Under the pieces are notes generated by a model. The model made no database searches, was not told the origin of the DNA, and saw nothing but the letters and a program-made list of their open reading frames with translations. The position numbers and the translations under genes were made by a program. From Eledone cirrhosa (Eukaryota): a DNA stretch of 64,000 nt. The stretch's first letter is position 1; every line of letters starts with the position of its first letter. The stretch lies in contig OZ024758.1 in assembly GCA_964016885.1 (NCBI GenBank), forward strand, positions 13,578,001 to 13,642,000, given 5' to 3'. This document shows positions 3,101 to 9,100 of this stretch, piece by piece.

Positions 3101-6100
3101 GTTTGATTCCTGGACCGGATTGTGTGGGTTGTGTTCTTGAGCAAAACACTTCATTTCATGTCACTCCAGTAAGGGTGTTAGACTTACGATCATAATGATA
3201 GGGGAGATTACCACCTTATGTTTGATGTGTAACGGATGGAAGACATTACCACCTTTTCCTATATTTCATTTAACAATCATTTTCCTTATTTTCTGTATTT
3301 TTCAGGAGGAATTGCTAAAAATTTTGAAACAGGATCTTTGTAACCACCTTGGTCAATATAAAGAAATGGTAAGCAGGAACTTAAATGTTAAAGACTTATT
3401 TTTTTAAAGATCATTCTTGTTAATTTAATGAAGGCAGCAAATTGACAGAGTTGTTAGAACGCCAGGTAGAATGCTTTGCTTGCATTCGTCCTGACTCTCT
3501 GCTCTCCGAGTTCAAATCCCACCGAGGTCAACTTTACCTTCCATCCTTTTGAGGTCGATAAAAAAAGAAGTACCAGTCTATTACTGGGGCTGATTCCTCC
3601 TCTATATTTCTTTCCCACTTCCTCTCTTTCGCTTTTTATTCTTCTCTTGAAGAAATCTGCTGTGTTCAGACCTGAAGGGAAGGATGGGCTCAGTCAGGCT
3701 TGAAATGCACTAGAAACATTGTATTCTACTACAGTGCTCCCATGATTCCATCATGAGTTACAGGACCATACCATACCATACCATTATTTCTTATACATCA
3801 TCTTCATTTTTATATCCAGTTTTCTATGCTGGCGAGAATTGAATGCTCTTTCTAATGTAAACCCTTGCTTGCCTCTTAAAGGATGGACCTTTACATGTCT
3901 AACTGCTAAACCATGGGACTTATGCAGGACATAAACAAATATAACTGCCTGCATGTCATATGTGGAACAAAGAGACAAAAATGCACACACACATATAAGA
4001 TAGGTTTTGTCCTGTTTCTGCCTACCATATCCATTCTCAATGTATTGATTGGCCTAAGATTATAGAAGAAAACACTTGCTCAAGGTGACAGGCTTTGGAA
4101 TAGAACCCCTTAATATAGCCATGTCTACATATGTTGTTTTTGTTGTTTAGCCCATGTTCTAATTGAGCAAACTTGGTCTACATTTTCCATTTTTTTTTTT
4201 AGCCCTTTAGCATTTACATTTCTCTATATACTATTGTATTTTCATGGTAAACACTCTATTCCACATAATTATCTCACATAATATCGAATCTATCAGATTT
4301 TGATGTTATTTATTTTGAGAACAAACAATACCTTAACATCAGTATGAGCAACTGGTTTGGCCTGTTTGAACAGAAAGGTGAGAAAATTCTGGCTGGTTTA
4401 AATGCTAAAAGGCTAACCCTTTAGCATTTAAACCTGCCATATCTGGCCAGAATTCTCTCACCTTTTTCTTTTTAAATCGGCTGTAACTGACCACTCATAC
4501 TGATGTTAAGGTATTACTCTCAAAATAAATATCAAAATTTCGTTGATTCGATATTATGTGAGATAATTATGTAAAATAAAGCCTTTACCTCAAAAATACA
4601 ATAGTAAATATAGAGTAATGTAAATGTTAAAGGGTGTATAATATGAAATTATGCAAATTATTTTCGCTATTTTAATATCTAAAACAAAATCTTCATTTAT
4701 TTCAGTGTGATATGGTTGTTGATAGTTATGTCAGTGTTATCCTATCTGATTTAGTGGAAAAAATTGTAAGTACCGTCCTTAACAATCTTCTCTTTTAACC
4801 TCTAACCATGTAAACTCCTAGCAAACTGTTTGACTTTGTTTCAAACAGAAAATTACTGCAACAACAACAACTGATTGCTATAAACTCTAATTTGTTTTGT
4901 TTTTTGTTTTTCTTCTATTTTAGAGCACCAAAGTTATTTGTTCTGATATTGGTTTCTGTCCTCGGATCCTAATTAATGCTATCGCTGATCATTTCAGCAC
5001 AATTAAATTTTCAACAGTTAATGTAAGTATTTAAAAAAGACATTTTACTTCGAAAATTTAAACTTTAACCCTTTAGCATTTACATTACTCTATATATACT
5101 ATTGTATTTTCACAGTAAAGGCTTTACCTTACATAACATTTACATTACTCTATATATACTATTGTATTTTCACAGTAAAAGCTTTACCTTACATAACATT
5201 TACATTACTCTATATATACTATTGTATTTTCACAGTAAAGGCTTTACCTTACATAATATTTACATTACTCTATATATACTATTGTATTTTCATGGTAAAG
5301 TCTTTATCTCACATAAGGGCAGTGGATTGGCAGTATCAATAGAGAGTCGGACACAATGCTTTGCAGCATAGTGTTACGTCCCTTTACTCTGAGTTCAAAT
5401 CCTGCCGAGGTTAACTTTGCCTTTCATCCTTACGGGTTTGATAAAATAAAATACCAGTAATGCACTGGGGTAATTGCTGGCCTTGTGCCAAAAGTAGCAA
5501 CAATAATTATCTCACCTTATCTCACATAATATTGAATCTATGAGATTTTTATATTATATATTTTGAGAACAATACCTTAACGTAAATACTAGCAGCCGGT
5601 TACAGTCAGTTTAGTTTCAATGCAAAAGGGTTAACATTGATTTATTTAACTGTGCTATATAGATTATTTGTTGTTTTTTCAGCCATTCCAAGAGGCGACT
5701 GAATGTGAAATGTGCAAAGTGTTGCTTAAAGAACTCCGCACCGTAGTTGAGGACAAGAAAGTCCAGGTAATTATTTCACTTTAGTTTGTGTCAAAAGACA
5801 TGACAAACTTCTCCTCTGCACTCGATATCACCCTGTATGTAACTGAGATGCAAACCCCTTGGCCTGTCTAGGAGGTCAGTAGCTCCCCCTTCAGTAGTGA
5901 CTTGGTCTATGTACACCTGTCCAACCCTTACTAGCAGGGAAAGTACATGTTAAATGATGATATATATATATATTGTTTCTGTAGGAAAGGTAAAGGAAAG
6001 GAGAGTGCTCTATGTAAGCTACAGAGCTATTTAGTTATGTAATAAACAACATAAGACAATTATTCCATTTACCAAAGGTTTCACGAAGACAGACAAGCTC

Positions 6101-9100
6101 GACACAGACGTCTGAAATCGTTCATCAGAATGAATTTTATTTGAAGAGGAAGTCTTCGTCTTCAAATAAGATGATATATATATATACATGGCTTAGTGGT
6201 TAGAGCATTGGGCTTGCAATCGAAAGGTTGTGAGTTCAATTCTCAGACTGGGTGATGTGTTGTTTCCTTGAGCAAGATACTTTATTTCACATTGCTCCAG
6301 TTTACTCAGCTGTAGAGATGAGATAATAGGACTGGGGGTCCCTATCATTCCACTGCAAAGTGGTCGTGGAGATGCCACGGAAAAAAAGCACCCAGCCCAC
6401 ACTGTAAAGTGGACGTGTAGGCGCCACGGGAAAAAAAGTACCCAGCACTCACTGTAAATGAGGTTGGCGTTAGGAAGGGCATCCAGCTGTAGAAATCAAG
6501 TCAGAATCAGTTCCCGTATGAGCAAGACGAGGTCAGCCGACCGGACACTGCCCACAACAGGACAACCCGTCTAACCCATGCTAGCGTGGAAGAACGGACG
6601 TAAAACGATGATGATGATACTGATCGCATGGATCCCTTGGCCTGCCTAGGAGGTCAATGTCTTCCGCTTCAGTAATGACTTGTAGTGATGATGAACATAG
6701 AATATTTTCTCTCTCTCTATTGAAGAACTTTATATATTCTGATATTAGGAGAATATAGGGAAATTATTCTCTTGGAAAATATATTTGCAAAACTATTTTC
6801 TTTTGTATATTGTGGGCCATTATTCCAATGTGTAGTAGTAGGACCTTGTTAATGTAATATAAGGGAATTTAACGATTCTAACCAACTGAGATTATCCAAG
6901 AACTAAATGTAAGCATGGTAAATCTTCTGGATGCTATAGGTGCATTAAGTCGGCAATAGTGATCTCCCCTTAACACATAATACAGTGTCAAGGGAAGTAA
7001 TTGATAAAAATTAATAGCATGTTAAAGGTTAAGAATTTCTCTTCACAATCGTGAAGTCCAGGGTTTGATCCTACTATGAGACATCTTGGGCAAGTATTTT
7101 TTAGCATAGCTCTGTGGTCAACCCACAGAAGCTCTGTGGAAGCACATTAGAAGGATTGTACCTGTAATTGCACAAGGTCTTTTATCATTTTCAAACTTTT
7201 TGAAAGATTTATATTATTGGCATTTTGTTTAATTTCTTTTCTCATTATAGACACAGATTACAGATTTTATCAGCAATGAAGTTTGCGCAAGACTTGGAGA
7301 TATGAAATCTGCTGTGAGTTAAATTGTTAAACCATTTTGTTATTTTGTTAATAGTAGAAGACACACAGGTGGCAAATTGGCAGTCATTAGAACGTCAGAT
7401 AGAATGCTTTAAGGTATCAAATCTCGCCGAGGTCAACTTTGCCTTTCATCCTTTTGAGGTCGATAATAAAAAGTACCACTTTAGTACTGGGATCAATTCT
7501 TCTTCAATATCTCTTTCTCATTTCCTCTCTCACTTTTTTTCTCTGGAAAAAATCTGCTGTGCTCAGGCCTGGAGAGAGATGGGCTCCGCTAGACTTAAAA
7601 TGTCCAAGGAACACCGTATGTCAATATGGCACCCCTACGACTTCCTTGGCAGTTACGGGACCATTCAAAGAAAGCACTGCCTGCCTCTAATTTCCAATTA
7701 TTTTGAAAATAATAACAAATTTGAAAGGATTTTAGTAAAATTACTTTCTCGTTACTAAACCAGTGTTTGGAACATAACATAAGAAAGGTTCTTACATCAA
7801 ATTGTGATGGAAGTGGAAGGGTTTTAGATAAATATAAGTGCATTTTTGGTTATACCACAATAGGAAAATATTCTAAGATGTCCACCATCAAATGACAAAA
7901 ACTAATGAATGTTAAAATATGATTCCAGTTTGATCAATTAATACTAAATTAGAAATGTCTTTATAGATTTTATAACTTGTAAATTTAATTTAAATATCAA
8001 ATACCCTTAAATATTTTCAATGTTTTCTTTGGATGAAGTGTTCTGATGAATATTTATATATATATATATATATTTATTAAAATAACAGATTAAAGTTTAA
8101 GCAAAGAATCGCTGCTTTCACCTTTAACGGGATCTTCTGAAACTAGTTTTTAGTTTCAGAAGATCCCGTTAAGAGTGAAAGCAGCGATTCTTTGCTTAAA
8201 CTTTAATCTGTTATTTTAATAAATATTATATATATATATATATATATATTTTAAAAAAAAAATATTTTGTATATTCTTTTCAATTTATTTAGTGTCTGCA
8301 GCTTGTTTTAGAATACAAACCCTTGATTATAAAATCAATTGAAAGTTTATTGGTAAGTCTACAGAGATAATGTTATATTCAATCCTTTAGCACTTAAACC
8401 AACCATATCCACCCAGAATTCTCTCACTTCTTTCTGTTCAAACCAGCTGTAACTGGCTGTTCATATTTATATTAACCCTTTAACATTTAAACCAGCTGTA
8501 TCTGGCCAGAATTCTCTCACCTTCTTTCTGTTCAAATCAACTGTAACTGGCTGTTCATATTTATATCAATCCTTTAACATTTAAACCAGCTGTATCTGGC
8601 CAGAATTCTCTCACCTTCTTTCTGTTCAAATCAACTGTAACTGGCTGTTCATATTTATATCAATCCTTTAACATTTAAACCAGCTGTATCTGGCCAGAAT
8701 TCTCTCACCTTCTTTCTGTTCAAATCAACTGTAACTGGCTGTTCATATTTATATCAATCCTTTAACATTTAAACCAGCTGTATCTGGCCAGAATTCTCTC
8801 ACTTCTTTCTGTTCAAATCAACTGTAACTGGCTGTTCATATTTATATCAATCCTTTAGCATTTAAACCAACTGTATTTGGGCAGAATTCTCTCACCTTCT
8901 TTCTGTTCAAATCAACTGTAACTGGCTGTTCATATTTATATCAATCCTTTAGCATTTAAACCAACTGTATTTGGGCAGAATTCTCTCACCTTCTTTCTGT
9001 TCAAATCAACTGTAACTGGCTGTTCATATTTATATTAATCCTTTAGCATTTAAACCAACTGTATTTGGGCAGAATTCTCTCACCTCTTTCTGTTCAAACC

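Follow-up and report, generated by a model that had tools for sequence, protein, structure and literature searches.

Hammerhead ribozymes in the ends of Penelope-like elements (PLEs) have been known across animals since 2014, and the kind of ribozyme considered here is thus not new. As described in excerpts of Cervera and de la Pena 2014 (PMC4209133), metazoan PLE hammerheads combine a long helix II with a small helix III, have a highly conserved G10.1-C11.1 pair and typically an extra base after A9, and show low activity that needs dimers; thousands occur per animal genome, in many unrelated families and mostly as solitary truncated copies, with opposite-strand pairs lying 100-700 bp apart. 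Excerpts of Craig 2021 (PMC8557442) treat the hammerhead within the pseudo-long terminal repeat (pLTR) as a PLE feature, and describe PLE insertions with 5' truncation, often a shortened inverted copy at that end, in some cases a tail of 30-40 bp, and (TA)n targets. In the Anolis PLE PAc, uncut RNA is the template and targets are AT-rich; the start of reverse transcription lies 85-92 nt (111-118 minus 26) beyond the cut site, and the ribozyme cleaves only with the protein (Frangieh 2024, PMC11167929). PLEs are abundant in octopus genomes according to parts of two papers (PMC13282606, PMC8967140), the main texts of which do not contain the word 'ribozyme'. Here, we analyse a hammerhead-bearing insertion at 5973-6169 in an intron of a saposin-repeat gene of Eledone cirrhosa, within a 64,000-nt stretch of contig OZ024758.1 (assembly GCA_964016885.1, positions 13,578,001 to 13,642,000) that is referred to as the window; coordinates are positions in the window, and elements are named by the start position of their hammerhead core. 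We find that the insertion is likely a 5'-truncated, folded-back PLE end inserted at (TA)n and now probably a silent passenger.

A descriptor scan of the window places a type I hammerhead with a complete core on the minus strand at 6128-6070. Core positions C3-U4-G5-A6-N7-G8-A9, G12-A13-A14, A15.1-U16.1 and H17 are all present, and the three helices, open at stem I, comprise 6, 4+6 and 3 bp. Stem IIa is formed by 6121-6118 and 6086-6083 and stem IIb by 6114-6109 and 6095-6090, with a closing G-U pair; the GAAA box (6082-6079), stem III (ACC-uuu-GGU, 6079-6071) and the GUA triplet (6072-6070) follow, and cleavage is predicted between 6070 and 6069. All of the parts listed in an earlier sequence-only reading of this locus (stem I, CUGAUGA, stem II, GAAA, ACC-uuu-GGU and GUA) were found at the place and on the strand that it had named. 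Its extended stem II stands as well, with stem IIb comprising 6 bp rather than the 5 bp that it had counted. The scan returned eight type I hammerheads in the window and none in each of 200 block-wise dinucleotide shuffles; the motif at 6128-6070 is real. In an Rfam search the 6128 hammerhead fell below the gathering score and was not reported at E<=10; as none of the other seven window hammerheads was reported at the gathering score either, the missing match says little about the motif.

To place the element among repeats, reads or contigs of four out of eight sequencing runs (X1, X4, X5 and X6) were compared with 5600-6260 at 80% likeness. The resulting depth, which serves for order of magnitude and shape only, is 12.3 in X1 over the single-copy intron and exon flank and, relative to that flank (all ratios rough), 199,365-1,059,605 in the tail (~16,000-86,000 times), 502,199 in the cut-site region (~41,000 times), 54,858 in stem II (~4,500 times), 15,024 on the CUGAUGA side (~1,200 times) and 2,036 over the upstream 23 bases (~170 times). 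Many other genomic copies thus exist, contig and read depth lying far above that of the single-copy flank, and the refuting condition set beforehand, which included their absence, does not refute the second lineage. Within the window, blastn returned no second copy of the 5973-6169 element. Judged from these matches, the element belongs to a dispersed multi-copy repeat family; this family is distinct from the hammerhead family (family A) found elsewhere in the window. The 5' match ends of family copies differ (6134, 6134, 6140 and 6153), and the variant base at 6095 is carried by X6 reads with ~75 start places; in 345 of 418 X6 reads this base makes the closing pair of stem IIb (6109/6095) G-C, compared with G-U in the window copy. 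Among 40 of the 195 variant rows, 19 variants lie inside the element and none in the core or in stems I, IIa and III, those in loop II (6094, 6095 and 6101) being CpG-type transitions, as in neutrally decaying copies. Letters other than (TA)n past the 3' end (5970-5975) are shared in 294 of 325 and 39 of 68 X6 reads at 5973 and in 54 contigs in X1.

The element also has a sister family, represented by 32 X1 and two X4 contigs that have the same tail, stem III and GAAA box followed by a different, T-rich stem II 3' strand after 6082. Several other leads were discarded: X5 was not accepted as a second species, as the share is small and there are only two records; X6 read ends at 6058, 6061 and 6241 are AATT restriction ends and not ribozyme cuts; and two matches from a metagenome pattern scan were rejected as chance, with stem II unpaired and the sequence coding-like. 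The same kind of scan gave no matches in either the genome contig or the viral contig collections.

The anatomy of the insertion (Table 1) was read along the minus strand, where a 16-nt arm (6169-6154) and its mirror (6152-6137) flank the central base 6153 and are followed by the hammerhead and a 97-nt tail. The hairpin at 6137-6169 reported in the sequence-only reading is real, with 15 of 16 positions pairing around the 1-nt centre. Record 15 of X4 is another copy that matches downward from 6153 and is unlike over the 64 letters beyond it, an indication that 6154-6169 arose at the present locus. The 17-bp direct repeat that borders the insertion is mostly microsatellite, and a chance origin of it is possible. 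Four other pieces enter (TA)n at the same end (X1 records 5-7 and X4 record 13), and three other copies carry head-to-head inversions, with opposite-strand joints 6023->6113 in X1 and 6051->6127 in X4, and with X5 record 17 running through 6045-6077 on the plus strand and then 6134-6039 on the minus strand.

Table 1. Features of the insertion and its surroundings in the window.
Feature	Position	Strand	Remarks
Whole insertion, 197 bp, likely a 5'-truncated PLE end (pLTR) with a short inverted 5' piece	5973..6169	-	direct repeats at both sides; multi-copy, depth falling 5'-ward
Left 17-bp direct repeat GATG(AT)n, likely target-site duplication	5956..5972	+	longest exact repeat between the flanks
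Right 17-bp direct repeat	6170..6186	+	
3' tail of the element, adjoining (TA)n	5973..6063	-	element end 97 nt beyond the predicted cut site
Candidate 'lock', pyrimidine segment	5989..5998	-	10 bp with a single bulge to its complement 6073-6063; part of the minimum-energy structure predicted for the full element
Small hairpin in the tail	6007..6027	-	predicted fold; variable base 6017 in the loop
Stem I, 3' strand	6064..6069	-	partner of 6134-6129
GAAA box, stem III and GUA	6070..6082	-	3-bp stem III with UUU loop; predicted cut after 6070
Extended stem II	6083..6121	-	helices of 4 and 6 bp separated by a 3x3 loop and capped by 13 nt; A-U as the first pair
CUGAUGA catalytic box	6122..6128	-	
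Stem I, 5' strand	6129..6134	-	pairs 6134-6129 / 6069-6064, 6 bp including one G-U
Fold-back, likely made at insertion	6137..6169	.	6154-6169 mirrors 6152-6137 around 6153; 15/16 pairs
tRNA-derived head of a neighbouring short interspersed nuclear element (SINE), not part of the element	6187..6250	+	Rfam tRNA 33 bits; also present at 18334 and 41033
Saposin-repeat gene exon upstream of the insertion-bearing intron	5683..5766	+	spliced contig ends in X4

Several properties liken the element to a PLE end: it belongs to a dispersed multi-copy family with 5' truncation, judged roughly from the depth gradient and the differing 5' match ends, although sister families add to the drop; the hammerhead lies near the 3' end of copies that keep sequence past the cut site (97 nt, against 85-92 nt in PAc); an inverted piece occurs at the 5' end of the window copy and of the three copies in X1, X4 and X5; and the target is AT-rich or (TA)n, both for the window copy and for other copies that enter (TA)n. 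We infer PLE membership from this combination, which supports the view that the element works like, and very likely is, a PLE end. The Penelope-like parent proposed in the sequence-only reading is accordingly upheld for its 5'-falling depth, (TA)n target, inversions and 3' extension, and falls short in its open reading frame (ORF), none having been found in the window frames.

Several points weigh against this assignment. No reverse transcriptase or GIY-YIG domain was found in 150 window open frames (148 of 235 candidates of at least 48 aa, plus two added), and the hammerhead itself departs from the PLE norm, with A-U in place of the usual G-C at 10.1-11.1, no extra base after A9 and a loop III (UUU) that is quasi-palindromic and not a true palindrome. 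The depth profile sums short contigs and is not a copy number; sister families that differ in stem II, and not truncation, may account for its 9-fold drop at 6082; and in X6, which consists of raw restriction-site-associated DNA (RAD) reads, AATT cut sites at 6058, 6133 and 6238 distort the profile. Core conservation across copies is only partly visible, given the 40 of 195 variant rows, and the locus-specificity of 6154-6169 rests on one other copy ending at 6153.

The insertion can be accommodated in a sequence of putative steps. The GIY-YIG nuclease of the element would nick the (TA)n tract, reverse transcription would begin on a still uncut RNA, ~97 nt 3' of the hammerhead's cut site, and cDNA synthesis would run ~180 nt through the ribozyme and halt at 6153, whereupon the enzyme would switch onto its own cDNA for 16 nt before joining to the target; repair would then leave the 17-bp duplication. 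In the parent element, the ribozyme would act in processing tandem transcripts, probably at a slow rate and either as a dimer or aided by the protein of the element. A two-primer route is expected to yield an inverted arm from the element's 3' end, as in family A and the three other copies, and the 5973-6169 copy thus calls for a fold-back or, alternatively, for a later deletion that left the duplication intact. If it is a fold-back, the 16-nt arm would separate self-templated synthesis from two-primer insertion.

The host intron was defined from an X4 contig that spans 5683-5766 and joins it to exons ending at 5022 and starting at 7251, giving a GT-AG intron at 5767-7250 on the plus strand. 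These exon joins, together with Pfam SapB domains in plus-strand frames at 9617, 10118 and 17863, bear out the earlier placement of the hammerhead in a saposin intron. The saposin gene runs on the plus strand and the ribozyme on the minus strand, so the ribozyme is unable to cut the host pre-mRNA, which carries only its reverse complement. A 49-bp segment occurs at both 5856-5904 and 6634-6682 (86% identity), flanking the insertion and the SINE, and is part of other high-copy repeats. An X1 joint (5962->6187) considered as an empty allele was rejected, as both sides are common repeats; X1 record 1, which runs from unique intron into the element up to 6003 with no difference, also speaks against an empty allele. 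A tail intron, suggested by GT at the cut site, a pyrimidine tract and CAG at 5981-5979, was similarly rejected, as ~90% of the family depth differs at 5980, removing the AG. A PLE ORF starting within the ribozyme was not retained either: the frame from the ATG of CUGAUGA stops after 14 codons, and all three frames close within or shortly after the 6128 ribozyme.

The principal rival to a truncated PLE end is a SINE-like or retrozyme-like unit, that is, a non-autonomous monomer that arose from a PLE end, whose native 5' end is the hairpin and which spread by a short, possibly circular RNA. The element has the size (~200 bp), the type I hammerhead and the lack of an ORF expected of such a unit, no parent ORF was found among the window open frames, and monomers of animal retrozymes are reported to occur and to derive from PLE pLTRs in the part of a preprint that treats them (bioRxiv 10.64898/2026.07.22.740005). 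The retrozyme criterion, however, is tandem units of 150-400 bp with a hammerhead in each, and there is no tandem copy at the 5973-6169 locus; the depth declines steeply toward 5', where a unit would give a flat profile, the 5' match ends vary, and the cut site lies inside the element at a distance of 97 nt from its end. Retrozyme circles are also reported as abundant in excerpts of Cervera and de la Pena 2020 (PMC7229834), whereas in X4, which contains spliced joins, the family is not enriched relative to the SINE head in comparison with X1 (0.0016 against 0.0051 at 6106-6128; a weak point, as the X4 library type is not on record). On balance we consider this explanation unlikely. A chance match to the hammerhead motif can be set aside almost entirely: the absence of an Rfam hammerhead match and a fold z-score for 6050-6180 of only -1.6 would be in keeping with it, but no shuffled window contained the motif, the majority base of the family restores a Watson-Crick pair in stem II, and seven further motifs of like architecture lie in the window.

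The intronic position and intact core could also point to a ribozyme adopted by the host to act on the saposin pre-mRNA. Conserved amniote intronic hammerheads of the HH9/HH10 type, with which such a case would be compared, are sense to the host pre-mRNA and single copy; the 6128 hammerhead is, in contrast, antisense and multi-copy. Adoption by the host is very improbable in view of this antisense orientation, the membership of a high-copy family, the weaker G-U in the window copy where most reads have G-C, and the repeat resembling a target duplication at both sides. We attach equally little weight to the idea that the element is the end of another class of retroelement, such as a Naiad remnant or the 3' end of a long interspersed nuclear element (LINE), with an independently acquired hammerhead. 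No parent was seen for the 5973-6169 element, and in excerpts of PMC8557442 Naiads share the (TA)n preference and the inverted 5' copies; the same excerpts, however, describe Naiads as being without canonical hammerheads and as only old remnants in cephalopods, and a LINE end is opposed by the lack of a poly(A) or short-repeat tail in the element beyond the duplicated target. A truncated PLE end remains our preferred reading of the 5973-6169 insertion.

Whether a hammerhead in this setting can cleave was addressed by fold prediction. In the isolated 78-nt core (6060-6137), the active fold is predicted to lie 1.8 kcal/mol above the ensemble, with a stem III pair probability of ~0.4, and stem IIa reaches modelled pair probabilities of 0.82-0.96 in three of four contexts and 0.47-0.56 in the fourth. 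Stem III is calculated at +0.4 kcal/mol in the monomer and -5.1 kcal/mol in a two-copy duplex; as two copies can pair via stem III at this energy, help from a dimer is plausible. Once the last 20 nt are present, the predicted cost of the active fold rises to ~9 kcal/mol in the whole element, because 5989-5998 pairs over the cut site. The description of the hammerhead as 'well-formed' was thus an overstatement, in view of the energy of stem III alone, the A-U pair at 10.1-11.1 and the cost of the active fold. With a marginal stem III, an A-U pair at 10.1-11.1 and a cut site that, by prediction, the tail masks, the 6128 copy is probably a weak or silent passenger.

The pairing of 5989-5998 over the cleavage site could be read as a built-in lock that keeps the finished RNA uncut for reverse transcription, a reading that the folding models allow and that we hold to be rather doubtful. 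Against shuffled sequences, 29 of 400 tails block as well (p 0.07) and 46 of 2000 pair as well (p 0.02; weak, being one of four segments tested), and none of five other hammerhead copies tested shows a tail lock (156-482 of 500 shuffles). Positions 6000 and 6001 vary in more than half of the depth, and none of the variants in the 40 of 195 rows falls in 5986-5999. Under the lock reading, nascent RNA, or RNA with a protein-bound tail, would self-cleave. If true, the lock would account both for the retention of sequence beyond the cut site in PLE copies and for the dependence of the Anolis PLE ribozyme on its protein. A separate pairing of loop II with 6009-6020 (18 of 2000 shuffles) was set aside, as the window carries the minority base at 6017 and a pair is lost with the common ones.

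The remaining window hammerheads provide a comparison within the same genome. Family A comprises 16120, 16274, 27628, 53796 and 53935, with a relative at 59722, the element of which is related to family A by an alignment score reached in 0 of 300 shuffles. Local alignment scores of the 6128 element against each of the seven other hammerhead elements are, in contrast, reached by 17-201 of 300 shuffles, and nothing is common beyond the core, in agreement with the earlier proposal of a second hammerhead lineage unrelated in sequence to family A. Family A hammerheads resemble 6128 in being type I, in their extended stem II with an internal loop and a first pair that is not G-C, in a short stem III, and in having (TA)n at the 3' end and an inversion at the 5' end; they differ in that the triplet is AUA, stem III an (AU)n palindrome, stem I long and the tail ~50 nt, and in having whole mirrored arms. 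The family A copies (16072-16318, 27580-27800 and 53748-53983) are head-to-head pairs or partial inversions with an extension of ~45-50 nt on one arm only, which corresponds to the published PLE 'tail'. The likeness that had been drawn between the 6137-6169 fold-back and the ends of these other elements accordingly holds for the presence of an inversion at the 5' end and not for its form, a 16-nt arm at the truncation point as opposed to family A arms that reach the 3' end.

The 59722 element (59673-59830), a diverged relative, carries a similar extension on the side that is inverted. At 14283-14332 on the minus strand lies a solitary hammerhead with an AUA triplet and GCGC in stem III, weakly like family A and unlike 6128, which likely represents a third or fourth lineage; the window lineages include at least family A with its relative, the weakly related 14332 element and the 6128 element. 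The solitary hammerheads 6128, 14332 and 59722, which lie between exons of plus-strand genes (saposin and dynein), are all antisense, and the sense copies 16274 and 53935 are each half of a long palindrome. This distribution hints at selection against sense hammerheads in introns, in numbers too small to test. The density is eight hammerheads in 64 kb, or ~1 per 8 kb, in a window that was picked for such a finding and may be untypical; if typical, it is far denser than the figure for coral, for which excerpts of PMC7229834 give more than 6000 hammerheads per genome. With eight motifs of at least three lineages in 64 kb, this genome may rank among those with the densest known complement of hammerheads.

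Elsewhere in the window, an axonemal dynein heavy chain gene (Pfam DHC_N1) has its exons at 50044-63737 on the plus strand; protein matches to dynein exons reach 60-68%, with a gastropod as the only named species. The SINE types and the microsatellite-rich repeats of the window would fit an octopus. An open frame of 391 codons at 31712-32887 (plus strand) has no Pfam match and no homologue was found for it; the frame at 37650-37952 (plus strand) has no Pfam match and is one that we take to resemble the C-terminal restriction-like nuclease end of a retrotransposon that lacks long terminal repeats (non-LTR).

A search by title or abstract returned no paper on octopus hammerheads, though supplements and subscription papers may list cephalopod ones; the 6128 family is absent from the literature searched and is, subject to what the supplements of PLE papers may list among cephalopod hammerheads, a new family of a known kind. 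With a core that is predicted to fold alone and a whole end that is predicted to be blocked by its own tail, the family offers a compact test object for the question of what PLE hammerheads do.

Set beside the described systems, the 6128 element shares with the non-LTR retrozymes, as portrayed in excerpts of PMC7229834, a type I hammerhead in a short non-coding animal repeat, and differs from them in not being tandem at the locus, in showing no sign of a contact between loops 1 and 2 and in its variable 5' ends. It matches the PLE hammerheads of Cervera 2014 in being type I, with a complete core, a long helix II, a small helix III and solitary copies, and the window matches those PLE systems in its several unrelated families per genome and its opposite-strand pairs; 6128 is unlike them in its A10.1-U11.1 pair, the lack of an extra base after A9, its quasi-palindromic loop III and a 10-bp helix II that contains a 3x3 loop and ends in a 13-nt loop. 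In PAc, a PLE of the Poseidon type, the ORF starts at stem II, unlike the frames of 6128, which close within or shortly after the ribozyme; both share a copy end 85-97 nt past the cut site and an AT-rich target, and may share an optional end extension and the use of uncut RNA as template. Naiads differ in being without canonical hammerheads, and the 16-nt inverted piece beside the truncation point of 6128 is unlike the copy from the 3' end in the elements covered by the excerpts of PMC8557442. With the Neptune-type PLEs and Naiads of those excerpts, the 6128 element nevertheless has in common the (TA)n target, the 5' truncation and the inverted 5' piece.

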